Assembly (NCBI GenBank): GCA_964614205.1
Contig: CAZTKF010000007.1
Coordinates: 153-64,152, forward strand
From: an uncultured Loktanella sp.
Lineage (GTDB): Bacteria; Pseudomonadota; Alphaproteobacteria; Rhodobacterales; Rhodobacteraceae
DNA length: 64,000 nucleotides
Direction: 5' to 3'
Shown: piece by piece, positions 30,165 to 40,154 of the stretch
Layout: each line of letters opens with the position of its first letter
Numbering within the stretch: the first letter of the stretch is position 1
Notes under the pieces: model-generated
What the model was told of the DNA's origin: nothing
The model's input: the letters and a program-made list of their open reading frames with translations, nothing else
Databases searched by the model: none
Translations under genes and position numbers: made by a program

Positions 30165-30524
30165 TCAGGCCTGAACCCAATTGCCCGCTTGTGAGGGCAG
30201 GAAGGCTTCCACCGCAGCGGTTGCGACAACGGCGGTGTCTCCGGTTTCTGGGTTCGGGATGTTGAGGCCGCCTTTGACTACGCCAACCTCGGCCCGCCCC
30301 CGCGGCAGCCCGGATTTCAGACCTTCGCTGTCGATCTTTTCAGGCTCTTGCACAGCGACGGTGACCTGTACCCGCATGTCGGTGTGCGGCAGGTCGATGC
30401 TGTCAAAGATCGGCAAGGTGGAATGCCGGATGGCATCCTCGATCGCACGGCGGGCCGCTTTTTGATAGTCCATGCCGTGCAGGTCGTTGCCCATCCCCAT
30501 TTCGATGATCACGCGCTGTTCCAT
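30165..30524 (-). CDS. Lin0512-family protein (motif-intact paralog)
   Basis: 119 aa. It carries GMGNDLHG, which fits the GxGxDxHG signature I recall for TIGR02058/Lin0512_fam. The stop abuts the bluB ATG. Confidence 0.6.
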   Translation of the reverse strand: MEQRVIIEMGMGNDLHGMDYQKAARRAIEDAIRHSTLPIFDSIDLPHTDMRVQVTVAVQEPEKIDSEGLKSGLPRGRAEVGVVKGGLNIPNPETGDTAVVATAAVEAFLPSQAGNWVQA

Positions 30525-30868
30525 CAGCTCCGCTCCATTTCAAACGAGACATTGATCGCTACATTCGCGATCACAGTCGGGTTGCCATCAGGGCGGGGGA
30601 TATCAAGGCCGCCATGGTGCACAGTGATCGTGGGCTGGCCGTAAGGAAAAATGTCCAGCAGGCTGTCAGTGTCGACCTGCTCGGGTTGCTGCACGCCGAC
30701 CAGCACATCAATCAGCATGGCCTCTTTGGGAAAGCCGAACAGTTCCGCCATTTTGATGGAATTGTGCCAAAGCGCGTCCTGCAAGCCACGCCTTGCGGCC
30801 TCCGTATAATCTTGGCGGCGCAGGCTGGTGCCCATGCCGAATTCGGTCAGAACGCGGTGTTTGGGCAT
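30524..30868 (-). CDS. Lin0512-family protein (motif-degenerate paralog)
   Basis: 114 aa and collinear with the neighbour, but the signature reads GMGTSLRR. There is a 1-nt stop/start overlap with the neighbour. Confidence 0.55.
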   Translation of the reverse strand: MPKHRVLTEFGMGTSLRRQDYTEAARRGLQDALWHNSIKMAELFGFPKEAMLIDVLVGVQQPEQVDTDSLLDIFPYGQPTITVHHGGLDIPRPDGNPTVIANVAINVSFEMERS

Positions 30869-31597: not shown

Positions 31598-32812
31598 TTA
31601 TTCAGCAGGCACAACCTGCGCGTTGCCAGTGCGGCCAAAGTGGCGGCGGTTCAGGTAGATGACCAGAAGGACCATGGCAATCTGGAAGCCAAGAGCAACT
31701 GCGCTAAAGCCCCAATACGCAATACCGAACTTCGCGATCAGGCCTGTGGCGACAAGGCCCTTGTTGATCCAGAAGTGTAGCATGACCGAGAGCGCAACAC
31801 CGGGGCAGACCAGCGCATAGGCACCTGCAGAATTGCCCTGACCGCGCAGGAAGGCATCTGCATAGCCCTGACGCCGGAGCACCAGCAGCCCCAGCAAACC
31901 GAATGCGAACTGCACGGCGAGGATTTTGGTCAGCAGCATCAGCGTTTCCGCGTTGGCGGCGTGAACCTCGAATGTTGTGTGCAGGCCGTGGTTCTGCCGC
32001 AGAAGCATGATGCCCAGAACAGTCAGCAACGGAACAACAACCATCAGGGTCGGGCCGCTTTCCTTTGCGGTGCCATGGTGCAGCATCGAGTTGAATGCTG
32101 TAATCGCAGCGATTGTGGCATAGACCGCCGCGACAGTGCCGATCACGGTCGACAGAACAAGGCTACTGCCGACGATCACGGGTTGCGTGCTCATCGCGGC
32201 AGGGGCTGATAGGCCCACGGCGATCATCGCCAAGGCAAATGCGGGCAGCAGCTGCGCGAAAGAGTTGTTGGCGGTGACGTCGAAGACGCCGCCTTCGGCC
32301 AGGACGCGGCCAAGGAATTGCCCGATCTGACGCAGGGCCAGAACGGCGATTGCAAGGAAGGCGATCATCGCCAGTGGGAACAGATACTCAACCACTGTCC
32401 AGAGCTTCGGTACGAAAACCAAACCCAGAATGAAGCCCACATTGACCGTCATAGCCAGTGCCAACGGCATGGCCAGAAGCTGGGTTTCGCCGTTTGTCTG
32501 GCGCAATTTGGCATAGCTTTCGGTTTTCTTGAACTTCGACATTTCTGTCAGGTTCCAGATCAGGGTCTTGATGTTCAGAAAGGCGAATCCGGCGATGCCG
32601 GTCACGGCAATGACAAGCGCTGTCTTCATTGCAAGACCGCTTGCCGACCAAGCCCGCAGAAGGTCTTCAAAGACCGGAACAGGTTGGCCTGGATGCGGCA
32701 CCCAGAACATCAAATACATGAAAAACGTGACCGCCAGGCCGCCAGCACCAAGCGATGCCAAGAAATAGAGCGGAGAGTATGCGTCCGCAGGGCGCGTTCC
32801 AGTGTGAGCCAT
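31598..32812 (-). CDS. polytopic membrane protein of unknown function (about 10 TM), embedded in the cob gene string
   Basis: 404 aa, uniformly hydrophobic helices, GGAGG SD 6 nt before ATG 32812. I did not confidently recognise a family. Confidence 0.6.
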   Translation of the reverse strand: MAHTGTRPADAYSPLYFLASLGAGGLAVTFFMYLMFWVPHPGQPVPVFEDLLRAWSASGLAMKTALVIAVTGIAGFAFLNIKTLIWNLTEMSKFKKTESYAKLRQTNGETQLLAMPLALAMTVNVGFILGLVFVPKLWTVVEYLFPLAMIAFLAIAVLALRQIGQFLGRVLAEGGVFDVTANNSFAQLLPAFALAMIAVGLSAPAAMSTQPVIVGSSLVLSTVIGTVAAVYATIAAITAFNSMLHHGTAKESGPTLMVVVPLLTVLGIMLLRQNHGLHTTFEVHAANAETLMLLTKILAVQFAFGLLGLLVLRRQGYADAFLRGQGNSAGAYALVCPGVALSVMLHFWINKGLVATGLIAKFGIAYWGFSAVALGFQIAMVLLVIYLNRRHFGRTGNAQVVPAE

Positions 32813-33011: not shown

Positions 33012-36000
33012 TCAGGAAAGCAGGCCTGCGATCCGCGCCCGTGCGGAATTGGATCTGGGTTGCCAGAGGTCACGATCAATCGCCTCTTGCAACCGCTCGG
33101 CGATGTCTTTGAGGGCCGGCGCGTTGACGTCGGCGATAAAGTCGCGGGTGTCATCGTCCTGAATGAAAGCTTCCTCCACCAGATCAAAGTGGTGGTTGCG
33201 GACAGCCCCTGTGGTGGCGGCGAAAGCAAATAGGTAGTCAACAGTTGCGGCGATCTCGAAGGCGCCTTTGTAGCCGTGGCGTTTTACACCGTCGATCCAT
33301 TTGGGGTTCACAACGCGGGATCTGACGACGCGCCCGATCTCGTCATCAAGGGTGCGGATCACGGGTCTTTCGGGCCGTGAATGGTCGTTGTGGTAGATTG
33401 GCCGATCTTGTCCCTGAAGAGTGCTGATGGCTGCGGCGGCCCCTCCCTCGAACTGATAGTAGTCATCGCTGTCGAGGATGTCGTGTTCCCGGTTGTCCTG
33501 ATTTTGGATGATTGCTTCGGTCTGTGACAGTCGCGCTTCAAAAGCTTGTCGGTCCTTGCGGCCCTCCGCGCCTTTGCCGTAGGCATAACTGCCCCATTCA
33601 AGGTAGGCTTCGGCGAAGTCGGATCTTTCGGCCCATATCCGTTCATCGATCAGCGCCTGCAGGCCTGCACCATAGGCCCCGGGTTTTGAGCCGAACACGC
33701 GGGTCTGGTCCTCGCCTGCTTTGGCTCTTGCGGCGGCAGGGTTCAGATCGGCGGGCTCGTCCATTTCCTGCACGGCCCGTGCCGCGCTGTCGACCAAAGC
33801 AATCAGTTGCGGGAAGGCATCGCGGAAGAAGCCCGAGATGCGCAGCGTCACGTCGACCCTTGGCCGACCCAGCACGGATTGTGGCAGGATGTCGAAGCCG
33901 GTGACGCGACGGTTAGCGCTGTCCCATGTGGGCTTGACCCCCATAAGCGCGAGCGCTTGGGCGATATCATCGCCACCTGTCCGCATATTGGCGGTTCCCC
34001 AGGCGGTGACCAACATCGTCCTTGGCCAGTCGCCGTGGTCTTGCAGGTGCTTTTCGATAAGAAGATTGGCAGACTTCCAACCCAGTGCCCACGCAGTAGG
34101 CGTGGGAACAGCGCGACTGTCGACTGAGTAGAAGTTGCGGCCCGTCGGCAACACATCCATGCGCCCGCGCGTTGGCGCACCTGAAGGGCCGGGCGGCACG
34201 AATTGGCCCGAGAGAGCGGTCAGCAAAGCTGCACCTTCTGCCGTCCCGCAGGCTTGGATCGTGGGGAGGACCGTCGTCTGGATTTCCGTCAGCACTGTCG
34301 CGCTCATCGGCCCTGGCGGGCGCGCGTCGCCTTTGAGCAGGCGTTGGCTCAGGTCTTCGAGCCTTTCGATGGTGTCGCCGTTCGTGCGCCATGTTGTGCC
34401 ATCTTCCAGCGCATCCGGTTTGTGCGGGGGGGTGCCGGTCATGTCACAATCCAGCGGATCAATGCCCAGACCCAGATCGCTGGCCAGCGCTCGCAAGAAC
34501 GATGCGTTTTTTCCGGTGCCATCGCCGCGCGGCACCCGCGCAAGAGCAATCGCGAGGTCGCGTTCCTGCTGACCGCTTGGTGATTGTCCGAAGATATGTA
34601 ACCCGTCGCGGATCTGCGCCTCTTTGAGTTCGCACAGGTAGGCATCCAGCTTGCCAAGGTCGCCGTCCTGATCACCCGTGCACCCTGCGTCTTTCGCAAG
34701 TCCCGTGACATCGGACAAGGACAGGATTTCGCGGCGCAGATGCGTGATCCGGCGCGGGTCGACGCCAGCGGCTTCATAGTATTCGTCCACGAGCGCTTCG
34801 AGATCACGCAGGGGTCCATAGCTTTCGGCACGTGTCAGCGGCGGGGTCAGGTGGTCGATGATCACAGCTGATGTCCGCCGCTTCGCCTGTGTCCCTTCGC
34901 CGGGATCGTTCACGATAAAAGGATAGATGTGTGGCGTGGGGCCGAAGACCGCTTCGGGCCAGCAGGTTTCTGACAGCGCCACCGCCTTGCCCGGGAGCCA
35001 TTCGAGATTGCCATGCTTGCCCATATGTACGATGGCATCCGCGCACCAGTGATGCCGCAGCCAGAAATAGAACGCGAGGTAATTGTGTGGCGGGACCAGA
35101 TCGGGCGCGTGGTAGGTGTCGGTCGGGTCGATGTTATAGCCCCGTGCCGGTTGCAGGCCGACGACGGCGTTGCCGAAACGGTGGATGCTGAGGGCAAAAC
35201 CTGCGCTTGTCTTTGCTGTTGGAGCCTCCGGCGGAGGTATTTCTGAACATGAGAAGAAGGGGTCGTCTTCGGGTTGGCCCCAGCGTGTTGTGATCTGTTC
35301 CTTGATCTCCCATGGCAGGGCGTTGAAATGCCGGTTGTAGATTTCCAGCGGCAGGAATTCGCCGCCTTCTTTGTCGGCGCGGTCTGTGAGCCAATTGGTT
35401 GGACCAGCGAGGATTTGCGCCATGAGCGCGGCACTGTCGGTGGGTGGCGTCACGTCAGCTCCGGTCGCTTTGAGCAGGTTCAAGACGTGCACCGTTGCAG
35501 CGGGTGTGTCGAGACCCACACCGTTCGCGAGCCGCCCGTCCTTGTTGGGGTAGTTGGCGAGGATCAGAGCGGTCCTTCGGCTGGCAGGATCGCTGCGCCG
35601 CAGGTTGGCCCAGTTCATGGCCAGTTGCGTGACAAAGTCGATCCGGTCACCACGTGCCTGATAGGTGGCAATCGGGCATTCGGTGGCATCGTCAAAGAAG
35701 GCTTCACCTTTGAAACTGACCGCGCGGGAAAGGATGCGCCCGTCAACCTCGGGGAGAGCTACGTTCATGGCGATGTCGCGGGCGCTGAGACCATGCAGGC
35801 CATCTGCCCAGGATGCCTCGGTGGCCCCTGACAGGATCACCTGGAAAATCGGGGCCGCATTGCAAAGAAGCGGGTTCTGCGGGCCGCCGTCGCTGTCATG
35901 CGGGGTGCCGACCGCAAAGGCGGTGCAGTTGAGAATGACCTCGGGCGGGGCCTCTGCAAAGAGTTGGTGAAGCGTCGCGGTGCTGACGGGATCTTTCAAA

Positions 36001-36716
36001 CTGGCCACGAAAACGGGCAGGGGGTTCAGGCCTGCGCGCGACAGGCTGCGGACAAGCCGGTTGATGGGGTTCAGCCCACCACCCTGCACCAATGCCCGGT
36101 AGAAAATGATGGGCACAACCGGTGCCCCTTCTGTCCAGCTGTCCCGGGCAGCGGCGAGGTCCGCGATGCCGGCACCGGGCCAGTAGACGCCGGCACGCAA
36201 GAGCGGTGCAGGTGCAGCCGGTTTGTCACCCCCATCAAGCATTGCCTTGGCATAGGTGAGAAGATTGGCGCTGTTTTCGGGGCCCCCTTCGACAAGATAA
36301 GACCAGAGCGTATCATAGTCATCGCTGGTCACCGTCGAGAGTTCGCGGAGTTCCGGATCGGGTTTGTCATCGCCGGGCAAGGCGGCGAAGGGGATGCCAG
36401 CCGCGCGCAAGCGGACGGCGTATTGGGTCAGACCGTATTTCCAGTAGCCTGCGCCACCCAGAATGCGCGCGATCACCAGACGTGACTTGGTTGCGCAGCC
36501 GTCCAGATGCAGATCGACCGACATCGGGTGGGTCAGATGCATCAAATTGGCAAGACGCAGGCTTGGCGGGTCTGTCATTTCGGCGCGTGCGTCTGACAGG
36601 GCAGCCAGTTCGGTATCGGCGGCAGAGATGATGATGACATCGGCGGGTGTCTGTCCCAGATCAACAGGTTCGGTCCCGTCCGAGATAGCGCCCGGTGTGG
36701 CGGCAAGCAGGTGCAT
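33012..36716 (-). CDS. cobN: cobaltochelatase large subunit CobN
   Basis: 1234 aa, with CobN/Mg-chelatase H-type similarity throughout (e.g. GLQPARGYNIDP, HMGKHGNLEWLPGK). Confidence 0.95.
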   Translation of the reverse strand: MHLLAATPGAISDGTEPVDLGQTPADVIIISAADTELAALSDARAEMTDPPSLRLANLMHLTHPMSVDLHLDGCATKSRLVIARILGGAGYWKYGLTQYAVRLRAAGIPFAALPGDDKPDPELRELSTVTSDDYDTLWSYLVEGGPENSANLLTYAKAMLDGGDKPAAPAPLLRAGVYWPGAGIADLAAARDSWTEGAPVVPIIFYRALVQGGGLNPINRLVRSLSRAGLNPLPVFVASLKDPVSTATLHQLFAEAPPEVILNCTAFAVGTPHDSDGGPQNPLLCNAAPIFQVILSGATEASWADGLHGLSARDIAMNVALPEVDGRILSRAVSFKGEAFFDDATECPIATYQARGDRIDFVTQLAMNWANLRRSDPASRRTALILANYPNKDGRLANGVGLDTPAATVHVLNLLKATGADVTPPTDSAALMAQILAGPTNWLTDRADKEGGEFLPLEIYNRHFNALPWEIKEQITTRWGQPEDDPFFSCSEIPPPEAPTAKTSAGFALSIHRFGNAVVGLQPARGYNIDPTDTYHAPDLVPPHNYLAFYFWLRHHWCADAIVHMGKHGNLEWLPGKAVALSETCWPEAVFGPTPHIYPFIVNDPGEGTQAKRRTSAVIIDHLTPPLTRAESYGPLRDLEALVDEYYEAAGVDPRRITHLRREILSLSDVTGLAKDAGCTGDQDGDLGKLDAYLCELKEAQIRDGLHIFGQSPSGQQERDLAIALARVPRGDGTGKNASFLRALASDLGLGIDPLDCDMTGTPPHKPDALEDGTTWRTNGDTIERLEDLSQRLLKGDARPPGPMSATVLTEIQTTVLPTIQACGTAEGAALLTALSGQFVPPGPSGAPTRGRMDVLPTGRNFYSVDSRAVPTPTAWALGWKSANLLIEKHLQDHGDWPRTMLVTAWGTANMRTGGDDIAQALALMGVKPTWDSANRRVTGFDILPQSVLGRPRVDVTLRISGFFRDAFPQLIALVDSAARAVQEMDEPADLNPAAARAKAGEDQTRVFGSKPGAYGAGLQALIDERIWAERSDFAEAYLEWGSYAYGKGAEGRKDRQAFEARLSQTEAIIQNQDNREHDILDSDDYYQFEGGAAAAISTLQGQDRPIYHNDHSRPERPVIRTLDDEIGRVVRSRVVNPKWIDGVKRHGYKGAFEIAATVDYLFAFAATTGAVRNHHFDLVEEAFIQDDDTRDFIADVNAPALKDIAERLQEAIDRDLWQPRSNSARARIAGLLS
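35224..35259 (+). repeat. dispersed short repeat, copy A (inside cobN, antisense to it, in-frame)
   Basis: GCCTCCGGCGGAGGTATTTCTGAACATGAGAAGAAG is 33/36 identical to the intergenic copy at 63269-63304. Confidence 0.85.
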
Positions 36717-36752: not shown

Positions 36753-37202
36753 TCACAGCACCTTCTCCATGAAGATCGAGCTGTTGGCGGCGGCATAATC
36801 GCCAAACACGCCGCATTCCTTGAACCCGTGCCGGGCATATAAACGGTGGGCCGCATGCAACACGTTTCCGGTTTCGAGTTTCAGCACCGCAACGCCCTCT
36901 TCGCGAGCGGTGTCTTCGATCTGGCGCAGGAGGGCCGCGCCAACACCTTTGCCGCGTGCCGCTTCACTCACAAACATCGACTTCACCTCTCCGTAGCGGG
37001 GTTTTACCATCAATGCCCCGGTTCCCAGGGCATCGTCGCCGACCCTTGCAGTGAAGAAGTGAATACCGGGAGCGACCAGTTCGTCGATGTCGAGGTAGAA
37101 GTTGTCTTCGGGTGGGAACAGATTTTGTATCAGGGCATGGCTTTGCCTGAGCAAAGCGGATGCTTGTGGGTGACGCGGATCTGTCCGTTCCACGATGATC
37201 AT
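36753..37202 (-). CDS. GNAT family N-acetyltransferase
   Basis: Acetyl-CoA motif ARGKGVGAALLRQ. ATGA overlap with the cobW stop. Confidence 0.8.
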   Translation of the reverse strand: MIIVERTDPRHPQASALLRQSHALIQNLFPPEDNFYLDIDELVAPGIHFFTARVGDDALGTGALMVKPRYGEVKSMFVSEAARGKGVGAALLRQIEDTAREEGVAVLKLETGNVLHAAHRLYARHGFKECGVFGDYAAANSSIFMEKVL

Positions 37203-38272
37203 GTCTGCAAGGCAGCCGTGATTGTCGCGTGATCCAGACCTGCCTCTCCTATTACGACCAAGCGTGTTTCGCGGGGGGCATCGCCGAAAGGCTGATCGAA
37301 ATAGGTGTCCACGCGCGGACCGACCGCTTGCAGCGTCAGCCGCATCGGTTTCCCGACGACGGCGACAAAGCCTTTCAGGCGAAGGATGTTGTTGGCGCGG
37401 ATCACATCGGCGACTTGGGCGGCAAAGGTGTTTGCATCAGCGATTTCACCGCGGGTGACGATAAAGCTTTCGAATTCGTCATGACCATGCTCGTGTTCAT
37501 GATCATAGTGGTCATCGTCGTCATCGTGGTGGTGGTGATGGTGGATTTCGTGGCGCGCGGCCAGATCGGCCTCGGCACCAACGCCCTGACCCAGCAGTAC
37601 ATCGACAGGAAGCGCCCCCATTGCTGCCTTAACGACTTGTACTCCGGAGCGGGCTTCGGATTTCAGCTTTCCTGTGAGAACCTCAGCCTCGGATGCATTC
37701 AACAAATCGGTCTTGTTGACGACAATCATATCCGCGCAGGCCACCTGATCTTCAAACAGTTCGGACAGCGGTGTTTCATGGTCAAGGTTTTCATCTTGCG
37801 CGCGTTGGGCATCGACGGCGGCGACGTTATGGGCGAATTGCCCGTCATGGACGGCGCGGCCATCCACAACGGTCACGACGCCATCGACGGTGACTTTGGT
37901 CGATATGCCGGGCCAGTTGAACGCGCGCACCAGAGGTTGCGGCAGGGCCAGACCGGATGTTTCAATCACGATATGATCGGGCTTTTCCTCGCGGGCCAGC
38001 AGGGCCTCCATCGTCGGGATGAAATCGTCGGCAACCGTGCAACAGATGCAGCCATTGGAGAGCTCTACGATATCATCCTCGGTGCAGACCTCATCGCCGC
38101 AACCCTTCAGAATATCGCCATCGACGCCTAGGTCGCCAAACTCGTTGATGATCAGAGCAATCCGCTTGCCTTGCGCGTTTTGCAGCATGTGCCGGATCAG
38201 AGTTGTCTTACCGGCGCCGAGAAAACCGGTGACGACAGTGGCAGGGATTTTTGCGGGCATGACTTGGTCCAT
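37199..38272 (-). CDS. cobW: cobalamin biosynthesis GTPase metallochaperone CobW (COG0523)
   Basis: VVTGFLGAGKTT P-loop, GCICC motif, and a His/Asp-rich tract HEIHHHHHHDDDDDHYDHEHEHGHDE. Candidate starts are 38272, 38260 and GTG 38311. Confidence 0.9.
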   Translation of the reverse strand: MDQVMPAKIPATVVTGFLGAGKTTLIRHMLQNAQGKRIALIINEFGDLGVDGDILKGCGDEVCTEDDIVELSNGCICCTVADDFIPTMEALLAREEKPDHIVIETSGLALPQPLVRAFNWPGISTKVTVDGVVTVVDGRAVHDGQFAHNVAAVDAQRAQDENLDHETPLSELFEDQVACADMIVVNKTDLLNASEAEVLTGKLKSEARSGVQVVKAAMGALPVDVLLGQGVGAEADLAARHEIHHHHHHDDDDDHYDHEHEHGHDEFESFIVTRGEIADANTFAAQVADVIRANNILRLKGFVAVVGKPMRLTLQAVGPRVDTYFDQPFGDAPRETRLVVIGEAGLDHATITAALQT

Positions 38273-38329: not shown

Positions 38330-38806
38330 CTATTCGATGATGAAGGTCTCTTCTACGAACAATGGCTGCCCGTCAGCGACCCATACTTTGTGGTCGTTTC
38401 CGCCCAGATACACGTGAATCGTTGCCTCCCCTTTTGGCAGGTCAATCAGGTGTCGCATGTCGGTGTAAAGCCGGCCGAGATTCTGACCATTTACAAAAAG
38501 GTGCCCATGGCCGGTGCCGGGCTCAACGGCTGTGTTGACGTCATGCGGGGTCATCCGAAAGCCGTCCATCGCAACAAACAGGTTGTGACCAGAGGCCGGA
38601 TCGGGCTGCAGATCGAGGGCGAGTGTCGGGGTTGGCAGGTCGGAGGGCCAAATGTTCTTGCGCTCGTCGCTCAGCTCCGCGTAGGGGGCCATCCCCATGT
38701 GATGAACACCGTTGCCACCGTTGCGAGACAGCACACCACTGTCCAGCATTGTGCCAGCGAATGTGCCAGCCGCCAGACCAACGATGAGGAATGTCAGGTT
38801 TCGCAT
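38330..38806 (-). CDS. exported His-rich protein of unknown function (possibly DUF4399-like)
   Basis: Signal-like MRNLTFLIVGLAAGTFAG, with HHMGM and GTGHGHLFVNG...IHVYLGGNDHKVW motifs. The DUF4399 resemblance is from memory only. Confidence 0.5.
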   Translation of the reverse strand: MRNLTFLIVGLAAGTFAGTMLDSGVLSRNGGNGVHHMGMAPYAELSDERKNIWPSDLPTPTLALDLQPDPASGHNLFVAMDGFRMTPHDVNTAVEPGTGHGHLFVNGQNLGRLYTDMRHLIDLPKGEATIHVYLGGNDHKVWVADGQPLFVEETFIIE

Positions 38807-38973
38807 TTTTTGTAGCCCCAATCAGCCCAATCGATATCCTGTGTACGTGCGATCGTGGGGGTTGGATGTATAAATGCTGGGGAACTTGGCACATGGAGCA
38901 CAGAAGCGCCGCCCTGTGCAATTTCTCAATTTCTCAGGGTCAATGCGCTGGGCCGCACGAGGGAGGTCGAGAA

Positions 38974-39002
38974 GGGCGCCTTCGAGAAAGCTGAAGGCGC
39001 CC
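38974..39002 (-). terminator. perfect hairpin between the CbiM-like gene and the next gene (possible intra-operon attenuator)
   Basis: GGGCGCCTTC (38974-38983) / GAAGGCGCCC (38993-39002) with a 9-nt loop, 8 nt after the stop. The trailing U-tract (TTCTCG) is weak. Confidence 0.4.
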
Positions 39003-39009
39003 GAACCGA

Positions 39010-39684
39010 TCAGACCGAATAGAGCCGCGATGTGACCAGCGCGCTGCCCTCAAGCTTGCGCATAGCCTTTGCCGCGGCAAGAACCGCCAAGTCGGCGAGG
39101 GGTTCGAGCAAGAGGACCGCCATGTAGGCAGCTCCGAATGACATTATGGCAGATACATTTTCAGCGCCAAATCCGGTGCCATAGAAGGCCCAGAATGCAA
39201 CCCAGGCAACAATACCGCCTTGATAGGTCGCAGACATCGCAAGGCATTGCTTGAATGTCAGATCAACATAGGCAGTCCCCTTTGCGATGACGTGTTTGGA
39301 CAATACCTGCAGTCCGAACAATGGAACCAGAAGCGTGGTGAGGTTCATCGCATATTGCGGCAAATCGGTTGGGGCGAAAAGCATCCCTTGCAGCAGCAGG
39401 CCCAGCGCAAGACCGATGGCAGCCGGGGCCGCCCCGAGGATCAGCAGCAAGGTTGATCCAAGGATGAGGTGCACTTCGGATACGCCGACGGCTACATGTG
39501 GAAGCAATTCGAAAAAAACGAAGACTGCGACGGTGGCGATGATAGCACGCGCCGCAAGGGATATGATGCCGCGATCGCGCAACGCCTCCCAGACCAGCTT
39601 GGCTGAATAGACTGTGGCGCCGGCGGCTGTTGCGTATGACAACGCAAGCTTGGCCCCGGTAACGATACCTGGTTCGATATGCAT
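39010..39684 (-). CDS. CbiM/NikM-like membrane protein (candidate cobalt permease), with no cbiN/Q/O nearby
   Basis: 224 aa, about 6 TM, N-terminus MHIEPGIV (compare CbiM MHIMEG). An AAGGAAGGA SD precedes ATG 39684. It lies directly downstream of a cobalamin riboswitch. Confidence 0.6.
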   Translation of the reverse strand: MHIEPGIVTGAKLALSYATAAGATVYSAKLVWEALRDRGIISLAARAIIATVAVFVFFELLPHVAVGVSEVHLILGSTLLLILGAAPAAIGLALGLLLQGMLFAPTDLPQYAMNLTTLLVPLFGLQVLSKHVIAKGTAYVDLTFKQCLAMSATYQGGIVAWVAFWAFYGTGFGAENVSAIMSFGAAYMAVLLLEPLADLAVLAAAKAMRKLEGSALVTSRLYSV

Positions 39685-39729
39685 TTTGTATTTTCCTTCC
39701 TTGACCGTCATCCCCGACAGCCGGTTTCA

Positions 39730-39930
39730 CATTTCGCATGGCTGGTCTCCTGGCTTGCGGGTCAGTGCGCTTTGCTGCCTTCCCAGAGATGTTCTCCAGT
39801 GGCGTGCTGCAAAGCACTCTCCGCATACAGTCGCGGGGGCGGCTGTGGCTTGGGGCCTCTGGTGAAGATCGGCCCGACCACATTCCCATTTGATCCCCTG
39901 ACACTCTAGTGCCGTGCGGGGAACCATGTT
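39730..39930 (-). promoter_or_regulatory. cobalamin (AdoCbl) riboswitch
   Basis: The minus-strand read contains, in canonical order, GGTTCCCCGCACGGC, AAATGGGAATGTGGT, GCCGCCCCCGCGACTGTA, CACGCCACTGG..CTGGGAAGGC, and the B12 box AAGCCAGGAGACCAGCC (39756-39740). Confidence 0.85.
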
Positions 39931-40154
39931 CTTTGACCGTGCGACCAAAGTGGCTGTCACGTCAAGTTGAAAACCGACGTTTACAGTCAAGTTGGCGGCC
40001 AGTGTCAGGCAAGGCCCTGTTTCACATGTCCCGGATCGCAATATCTTGTGGATAAGGCAGCGGAAGATAGCACATGCGGGGCACGGGGCGTTGACTCACG
40101 CAGTGTCACAGGGCGATGCTGTCGCAGATTGAGGAATCATACGGGCAAGGAACG

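Follow-up and report, generated by a model that had tools for sequence, protein, structure and literature searches.

A cobalamin riboswitch, a solitary CbiM-like gene (cbtC) and an exported His-motif protein in a predicted cobalt-uptake slot upstream of cobW in Loktanella

We analyzed a stretch of 64,000 nucleotides (nt) from an uncultured Loktanella sp. (contig CAZTKF010000007.1; hereafter the window), focusing on a minus-strand locus in which a cobalamin riboswitch is followed by cbtC, the gene for a solitary CbiM-like membrane protein, by a gene for a small exported protein with His motifs, hereafter X, and then by cobW, a GNAT acetyltransferase gene and cobN (Table 1). The initial annotation of this locus had interpreted the CbiM-like permease and X as a two-component cobalt acquisition unit with an architecture not characterized before. 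We find that the riboswitch together with the solitary CbiM-like gene is an already predicted and widespread cobalt transporter, CbtC, and that X is not its dedicated partner. Instead, X is a frequent resident of a cobalt-uptake slot located upstream of cobW in Rhodobacterales, mainly as the third gene of a cbtB-cbtA-X module.

Organization of the locus

The leader of cbtC matched the Rfam cobalamin riboswitch model RF00174 over its full length (model positions 1-189) with a score of 118.1 bits (E = 5.6e-29; gathering threshold 31.5), and the B12 box AAGCCAGGAGACCAGCC was found at 39756-39740 (-), in agreement with the initial annotation. A Shine-Dalgarno sequence, AAGGAAGGA, is present at 39702-39694, as had been noted, but the cbtC ATG at 39684 lies 56 nt past the B12 box (39 nt past the end of the aptamer) and not about 45 nt past it. 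In an alignment of 36 leaders, namely that of the window and 35 orthologous upstream regions, the motifs GCCACUG and GGGAAGG, the B12 box and all the core motifs were invariant. A terminator scan returned no terminator-like site between the aptamer and the cbtC ATG, and the riboswitch probably acts on translation. Indirect support for ligand-dependent repression comes from transcriptomics of the P. inhibens orthologue.

The perfect 10-bp hairpin reported downstream of cbtC was confirmed. The stem (39002-38974) begins 8 nt past the cbtC stop codon, has a folding energy of -25.3 kcal/mol (z -3.0) and lacks a U-run, which is why it was missed by the terminator scan. Hairpins of unrelated sequence occupy the same spot after the cbtC stop in three relatives (L007, L008 and L009), which fits a self-contained cbtC unit, and the structure is likely to be a partial terminator or a stabilizer of the transcript end. 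The distance from the cbtC stop to the start of X is 203 nt, and the spacer that precedes X may hold its own promoter; a promoter scan of this spacer (38807..38973) found no consensus sigma-70 site, and no convincing common promoter emerged when it was aligned with the regions between smc and X in relatives. In loci L088-L090, where X-cobW-GNAT-cobN occurs without a riboswitch, X and the genes that follow must have a promoter of their own. Gating of X by the riboswitch is hypothetical.

The three genes downstream of X produced the family matches expected from their initial annotation, with CobW scoring 498.9 bits against TIGR02475. The GNAT gene occupies the same position in three contigs identical to the window at this locus (L001-L003) as well as in L088-L090 and L094, and its position suggests that it corresponds to RSP_2081, a member of the cbtC-cobW-RSP_2081-cobN operon known from the literature and discussed below.

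Table 1 Features of the cbtC-X-cobW-cobN locus in the window
Feature	Coordinates	Strand	Basis
Cobalamin (adenosylcobalamin) riboswitch aptamer	39723..39943	-	Rfam RF00174
Expression platform and ribosome-binding region	39685..39722	-	Read from sequence
cbtC, predicted Co2+ importer of 224 aa with the N-terminus MHIEPG	39010..39684	-	Pfam PF01891
10-bp GC-rich hairpin	38974..39002	-	Folding energy
Hairpin-to-X spacer	38807..38973	-	
X, 158 aa, exported or membrane-anchored beta-sandwich protein	38330..38806	-	Structure model, conservation
cobW, GTP-dependent cobalt chaperone for the aerobic chelatase	37199..38260	-	NCBIfam TIGR02475, Pfam cobW and CobW_C
GNAT acetyltransferase	36753..37202	-	Pfam Acetyltransf_1, 62.8 bits
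cobN, aerobic cobaltochelatase large subunit	33012..36716	-	PF02514 CobN-Mg_chel on the identical L001 protein

CbtC is a divergent, solitary member of the CbiM family

The cbtC product was initially described as a 224-residue protein with about six transmembrane segments and the N-terminus MHIEPGIV. The length and the N-terminus are correct, but the AlphaFold model (mean predicted local distance difference test, pLDDT, of 79.5) contains seven helices. Its assignment as a CbiM-like permease was borne out by a match to the Pfam CbiM profile (PF01891) at 50.4 bits (cutoff 23.1), extending over residues 2-209 and profile positions 1-202 of 205. The three CbiM equivalogs of NCBIfam (NF004909, NF004905 and NF008873) gave scores of 15-22 bits against cutoffs of 172-225, and Pfam provides the sole sequence link of CbtC to the CbiM family.

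Examination of 200 CbtC homologues showed that H2, H72, Q99, N114, E194 and D198 are invariant, that M1 is present in 196 of them and replaced by V in the remaining four, and that no alignment position is occupied by Cys in more than half of the sequences. The metal site of NikM2 comprises four nitrogens contributed by Met1, His2 and His67, the latter located in the linker between helices 2 and 3, with Gln94 and Asn109 as conserved hydrogen-bond partners (PMC3945884). In CbtC, His72 falls in the predicted loop between helices 2 and 3, and the spacing of His72, Gln99 and Asn114 (27 and 15 residues) equals that of His67, Gln94 and Asn109 of NikM2, a correspondence established by spacing and not by structural superposition. 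The Met1-His2/His72 pattern combined with this spacing points to a NikM/CbiM-type site, as opposed to a BtuM-like corrinoid site, which would need Cys80. Thus, the pattern of sequence conservation supports the presence of a NikM/CbiM-type Co2+/Ni2+ site in CbtC.

Together with CbiM and NikM, CbtC has the PF01891 domain, the extra N-terminal helix that brings the total to seven, the MH start, the His in the helix 2-3 linker and the Gln/Asn spacing. It differs from them in the lack of adjacent CbiN, CbiQ and CbiO genes, in the Thr/Asp found where NikM2 has Gly101/Gly102, and in the very tight conservation of the family, with 59-89% identity across three proteobacterial classes. The comparison with BtuM is also informative: both are small S-component-like proteobacterial proteins, and BtuM works without a module of the energy-coupling factor (ECF) type, but its Cys80 ligates the corrin cobalt (PMC6072759), whereas CbtC has no conserved Cys and a predicted metal-ion site instead. 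A BtuM-like function for CbtC was rejected on the ground of the missing Cys. Taken together, these features identify CbtC as a divergent, solitary membrane protein of the CbiM family.

CbtC is a known prediction with a broad distribution

CbtC was reportedly put forward as a predicted cobalt transporter by Rodionov and coworkers in 2003. The riboswitch-cbtC arrangement was tabulated in 2009 and 2013, so the claim that the architecture was uncharacterized does not hold. Operons listed under cobalamin riboswitches include cbtC-cobW-RSP_2081-cobN of Oceanicola batsensis, cbtC-cbiA of R. sphaeroides and cbtC-cobF of Roseobacter sp. MED193 (Sun et al. 2013, PMC3766115). An earlier census records CbtC from S. 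meliloti, R. sphaeroides and Xanthobacter as well as from several roseobacters, the latter without Cbi/NikMNQO (Zhang et al. 2009, PMC2667541); the family found here occurs in the same groups. We identify the window protein as CbtC because the operon structures and the species match these published tables, an assignment made by context and not by sequence comparison with the originally named CbtC proteins. The window protein shares with the predicted CbtC the solitary state, the riboswitch leader and the cobW-RSP_2081-cobN, cbiA or cobF context, and we noticed no substantive difference between the two.

The CbtC family comprises more than 7000 clusters at 90% identity and is present in at least 578 species genomes (one genome per species) of alpha-, beta- and gammaproteobacteria. 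To characterize its context, we compiled 80 loci, 79 of which had enough upstream sequence for detection of a B12 box by regular expression and 73 of which entered a Pfam census of the next co-directional open reading frame (ORF). A B12 box was located 46-224 nt before the cbtC start, mostly at 62-72 nt, in 69 of the 79 loci. Rfam confirmed the riboswitch at cbtC of L007-L009 and of the S. meliloti plasmid pSymB, and among eight box-less loci that were checked, seven had no riboswitch and one had a riboswitch heading a longer operon. The initial expectation of conserved linkage was therefore borne out for the riboswitch and cbtC, but not, as shown below, for cbtC and X.

The gene following cbtC encodes a tetrapyrrole methylase in 27 of the 73 loci and CobW in 15, and in none of the 73 does it encode CbiN, CbiQ or an ABC protein; in Cereibacter, the homologue is followed by the gene for cobyrinate a,c-diamide synthase. 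ABC ATPases were detected by the combination of Walker A and LSGG motifs, and within 2 kb of cbtC in the 80 loci the only such protein was SMC. SMC was also the only ORF with this signature in the window, and therefore the window contains no cbiO. None of the genes adjoining the locus is cbiN or cbiQ, two genes that were sought only there and not in the rest of the window. Thus, the absence of an ECF module asserted in the initial annotation is upheld across the window for cbiO and among the adjoining genes for the other two, and the permease is solitary in the window as in the 80 other species. When a plasmid collection was searched with tblastn for canonical cbiMNQO, only solitary homologues were returned. 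In the model organism S. meliloti 2011, pSymB (L092, 4739-5681) encodes an intact CbtC preceded by a cobalamin riboswitch that scores 130.7 bits. For many pSymB records in the plasmid table, no gene is listed under the CbtC match; the ar35 small RNA is located in L092 at 2086-2227. Another solitary CbiM-like gene, whose product is 30% identical to CbtC, resides on plasmid p3 of Azospirillum brasilense (L091, 1203-4654) after the genes for a GTP-binding protein, nthB, nthA and a nitrile hydratase accessory protein. This paralogue may supply cobalt to the nitrile hydratase if the enzyme is of the Co type, in which case its location fits a cobalt-supply role of solitary CbiM homologues.

X is an exported protein of a family typically associated with cbtBA

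As initially annotated, the gene after cbtC encodes an exported protein with His motifs: the 158-residue ORF opens with a hydrophobic helix and contains VHHMGM and GTGHGH. The AlphaFold model consists of a helix (residues 3-20), a disordered linker and a beta-sandwich, with a pLDDT of about 90 over residues 45-158. Foldseek searches with this model retrieved generic immunoglobulin-like or fibronectin type III sandwiches (template modeling (TM) score of 0.4 or lower), with no function assigned. X had no family match in Pfam or NCBIfam; in particular, the suggested relationship to DUF4399 produced no match at E<=1.

Close orthologues of X form 26 clusters, and an exhaustive profile search extended the family to 1621 representatives at 50% clustering. 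Many members contain 2-10 tandem copies of a domain of about 95 residues. Some of these multi-repeat relatives score on DUF4399 (PF14347), which like DUF2846 is a beta-sandwich domain of unknown function; one of them reaches the cutoff, at 143 bits, and several others gave hits below threshold. X of the window and its single-domain relatives remain below every Pfam and NCBIfam threshold. The single-domain relatives are 160-190 residues long, with an N-terminal helix and usually a His-rich linker. H100, H102, H139, D69, N75, R112 and Y114 are invariant among them, and H119 also belongs to the His cluster. The identification of X as a PCu(A)C protein was rejected: neither X of the window nor four relatives match the PCuAC family, and the name is an automatic label.

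We then analyzed the context of the X family in 80 metagenome loci, 73 of which had enough upstream sequence. In 54 of the 73, cbtA is located directly upstream of X, and DUF1636 and/or cobW is found downstream in 42 of these 54. A B12 box lies upstream in 42 of the 54 as well, and of eight cbtB-cbtA-X loci scanned with Rfam, all but L130 had a riboswitch preceding cbtB. The arrangement cbtB-cbtA-X-cfrX-cobW-(GNAT)-cobN was found in Sulfitobacter noctilucicola and in Roseovarius sp. EL26, the latter with the same smc flank as the window. Locus L094, with the order smc|cbtB-cbtA-X|cfrX|cobW-GNAT-cobN, has the same flanking genes as the window, and the X-orthologue profile recovered the post-cbtA genes of both L093 (1e-29) and L094 (1e-25). 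Thus, the X family provides the third gene of the predicted CbtAB module, under the same riboswitch class and ahead of cfrX/cobW; unlike this module, the window has neither cbtB nor cbtA, and X follows CbtC instead. In the published tables, the slot upstream of cobW holds cfrX, hupE or cbtC (Sun et al. 2013, PMC3766115), and the RegPrecise tables list cbtBA-Pden_2526 in three Rhodobacterales. Judging by its position, Pden_2526 is most likely a member of the X family.

Two further arrangements were observed on metagenome contigs, riboswitch-hupE-X-cobW in L150 (4886-6430; HupE_UreJ at 108 bits) and riboswitch-X-cobW in L132 (5677-6492), so that the partners of X include a predicted Co/Ni transporter of a third type and, in L132, the riboswitch itself. 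Furthermore, cbtB-cbtA-X is present on mobilizable plasmids of Leisingera (L177, 2326-8136) and Labrenzia (L176, 1843-4767), with DUF1636 nearby and recombinase genes alongside, and in the Leisingera plasmid a Tn3-family transposase gene also adjoins it. The three-gene module looks mobile. The cobalt role initially proposed for X is plausible, but the family is tied to cbtBA rather than to CbtC.

CbtC and X are not a conserved pair

Sequence and profile searches failed to detect X in 78 of the 80 CbtC loci, and in the remaining two it is degraded. Among the relatives of the window, L007 (8978-9637) contains frameshifted fragments of X upstream of the riboswitch, and L008 retains a remnant of 56 residues. 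In L009, a Loktanella with a CbtC 80% identical to that of the window, cbtC is directly followed by cobW. Conversely, L088, L089 and L090 (Yoonia algicola) encode intact orthologues of X as the first gene in smc|X-cobW-GNAT-cobN, without CbtC and, as judged by Rfam, without a riboswitch anywhere in these loci. In L097 (6001-7508), the order is smc|X|riboswitch-cbtC|cobW, so the cassette lies downstream of X here and in L007 but upstream of X in the window. Given that the riboswitch is present with cbtC and absent from L088-L090, it travels with cbtC and not with X or cobW. In L087 (5747-6762), X is followed by an unannotated minus-strand ORF of 222 residues, and only a CobW_C fragment of 68 residues is left; cobW may be disrupted in this locus.

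The dedicated, co-evolved two-component importer of the initial annotation, gated by the riboswitch as one unit, is very improbable in the light of these comparisons. In its favor, cbtC and X stand side by side on the same strand in the window and in L001-L003, both products have metal-handling features, and the genes remain neighbors, in the other order, in L097 and L007. However, X precedes the riboswitch in both L097 and L007 and is hence beyond its control, and the X-cobW-GNAT-cobN array occurs without either CbtC or the riboswitch. The near-complete absence of X from CbtC loci, with a pseudogene or a remnant in the other two, the disparity between more than 7000 homologue clusters of CbtC and 26 clusters of close X orthologues, the usual neighborhood of X with cbtBA, and the hairpin and 203-nt spacer that part the two genes all argue against such a pair.

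A model of the cobalt-uptake slot and the alternatives

The model that we favor with moderate confidence is a slot that contains a self-contained riboswitch-cbtC unit for solo import of Co2+ and a retained periplasmic Co2+-binding protein, X. Under this model, the slot ahead of cobW-cobN would hold two independent elements in the window. The first would be a cassette made of the cobalamin riboswitch, cbtC and the trailing hairpin. The free N-terminal amine of CbtC, His2 and His72 would form a four-nitrogen Co2+/Ni2+ site like that of NikM/CbiM, and Co2+ would cross the inner membrane by means of CbtC alone, with neither CbiN nor CbiQ/CbiO; BtuM and BioY are precedents for S components that work solo (PMC6072759). 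High levels of adenosylcobalamin would stop translation of cbtC. The second element, X, either anchored in the inner membrane or periplasmic, would bind periplasmic Co2+ and aid whichever transporter is encoded next to it. Imported cobalt is passed by CobW to the CobN chelatase. As for the origin of this arrangement, the window and L094 share the same flanks around riboswitch-cbtC and riboswitch-cbtB-cbtA, respectively, and the simplest reading is that the transporter was displaced and X retained; the riboswitch-cbtC cassette would then have replaced cbtBA, and X would have stayed as the first gene of X-cobW-GNAT-cobN.

A wider version of this proposal, which we regard as tentative and rather doubtful at present, would make X a family, not described before, of periplasmic His-cluster beta-sandwich accessories that capture cobalt for any type of transporter, and would make CbtC a metal-ion S component that has dispensed entirely with CbiN and with the ECF motor. 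The occurrence of X ahead of cobW, whether it follows CbtAB, HupE or CbtC or has only the riboswitch before it, suggests that in marine roseobacters the protein might concentrate scarce Co2+ and hand it over to three unrelated inner-membrane importers.

Several observations weigh against the favored model. Neither the single CbtC sequence nor a profile of 23 family sequences matched the solved CbiM, NikM or BtuM chains in the PDB in HMMER searches. Foldseek retrieved ECF S components, among them CbiM of 5X3X, as the best PDB fold matches, although with weak scores (TM scores of 0.38-0.50, E >0.3), and the CbtC model is of low confidence in the N-terminal loop (residues 1-8) and in the loop before His72 (residues 62-68). 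Canonical CbiM needs CbiN (PMC3945884), and no CbiN equivalent was found at the CbtC loci. In S. meliloti, cbtJKL mutants need 1-10 uM cobalt despite an intact riboswitch-CbtC, and CbtC may therefore be a low-affinity importer or no cobalt importer at all. The literature that we searched contained no transport assay for either CbtC or X. With respect to X, the protein is decayed or absent in the closest CbtC-bearing relatives, approximately 16 of the 73 X-like loci have no cob or cbt neighbor, and some databases automatically name relatives of X copper chaperones.

The observations on X also bear on the most durable of the alternatives, namely that X is unrelated to cobalt and is a copper or zinc binder, or a structural periplasmic protein that rides in this neighborhood. 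Such a role would account for the automatic names, which include copper chaperone PCu(A)C and Zn-binding protein, for the loci without a cob link, for the decay of X in L007 and L008, and for the presence of the X domain in long multi-repeat and YHYH-linked proteins. We nevertheless consider it unlikely, because the majority of X loci have cbtA directly upstream and most of these carry a B12 box or, where scanned, an Rfam riboswitch; because X holds its place ahead of cobW beside three unrelated predicted Co transporters and moves with cbtBA on plasmids; and because X of the window has no Pfam PCuAC match.

It is decidedly unlikely that CbtC functions as a conventional ECF S component, docking on CbiQ/CbiO or EcfT/EcfA encoded elsewhere in the genome, in which case its solitary state would concern gene position alone. 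The modeled fold of CbtC does resemble that of an S component. However, there are no ECF genes beside cbtC in the 80 species, the CbtC-bearing genomes of Roseobacter, Sulfitobacter, Roseovarius and Oceanicola have no Cbi/NikMNQO at all in the published census (PMC2667541), and CbtC falls well short of all the CbiM equivalog cutoffs of NCBIfam. Finally, although B12 transporters are also found under cobalamin riboswitches and BtuM is itself a solitary S-component-like proteobacterial protein (PMC6072759), BtuM-like import of cobalamin or a corrinoid precursor by CbtC is extremely improbable given the lack of a counterpart to Cys80, on which BtuM depends (PMC6072759), the conservation of the NikM-type Met1-His2, His72, Gln99 and Asn114, the NikM N-terminal loop that occupies the pocket where vitamins would sit (PMC3945884), the neighborhood of de novo pathway genes (cobW, cobN, cobF/cobA-type methylases and cbiA) and not btuB or btuR, and the paralogue in a nitrile hydratase operon.

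Other features of the neighborhood

Beyond cobN, the window encodes a TsoY-family protein, cobO, two Lin0512-family proteins and a BluB-like nitroreductase. The gene that separates cobN from cobO encodes the first of these, a protein of 404 residues (31598-32812, -) that belongs to no Pfam family but matches the NCBIfam family NF047644, TsoY family (seleno)protein, at 513 bits. The tandem Lin0512_fam genes, encoding 114 and 119 residues (30165-30868, -), lie between cobO (31478-30870) and the gene for the BluB-like nitroreductase (30164-29541). CobW contains a long His/Asp-rich tract, HEIHHHHHHDDDDDHYDHEHEHGHDE, at residues ~236-262, which links the GTPase and C-terminal domains. On the smc side of the riboswitch, a perfect DnaA-box-like sequence, TTATCCACA, is located at 40047-40055 (-) inside the block GTCAACGCC...CATGTGC...TTATCCACAAGATATTGCG (~40030-40100). 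L007 and L087-L090 have this block conserved in their intergenic regions on the smc side, and it could serve smc or the cob operon as a common promoter or regulatory element.

Implications

Cobalt is present in seawater at picomolar concentrations, and roseobacters rank among the main providers of B12 to algae; to our knowledge, cobalt uptake by these bacteria is known only from gene-context predictions. The combination of the riboswitch with CbtC is by itself routine and already annotated. The only fresh lead from this locus is X, which represents an exported His-protein family not covered by existing models and recurring in the cobalt slot. CbtAB, HupE and CbtC replace one another in the slot upstream of cobW, and the small exported His-protein is frequently retained, which yields the testable hypothesis of a periplasmic cobalt-binding helper common to several transporters. 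If CbtC indeed works alone, it would for the first time extend the solitary S components, represented by BtuM and BioY, to a metal ion and would bear on how S components move their substrates without an ATPase.

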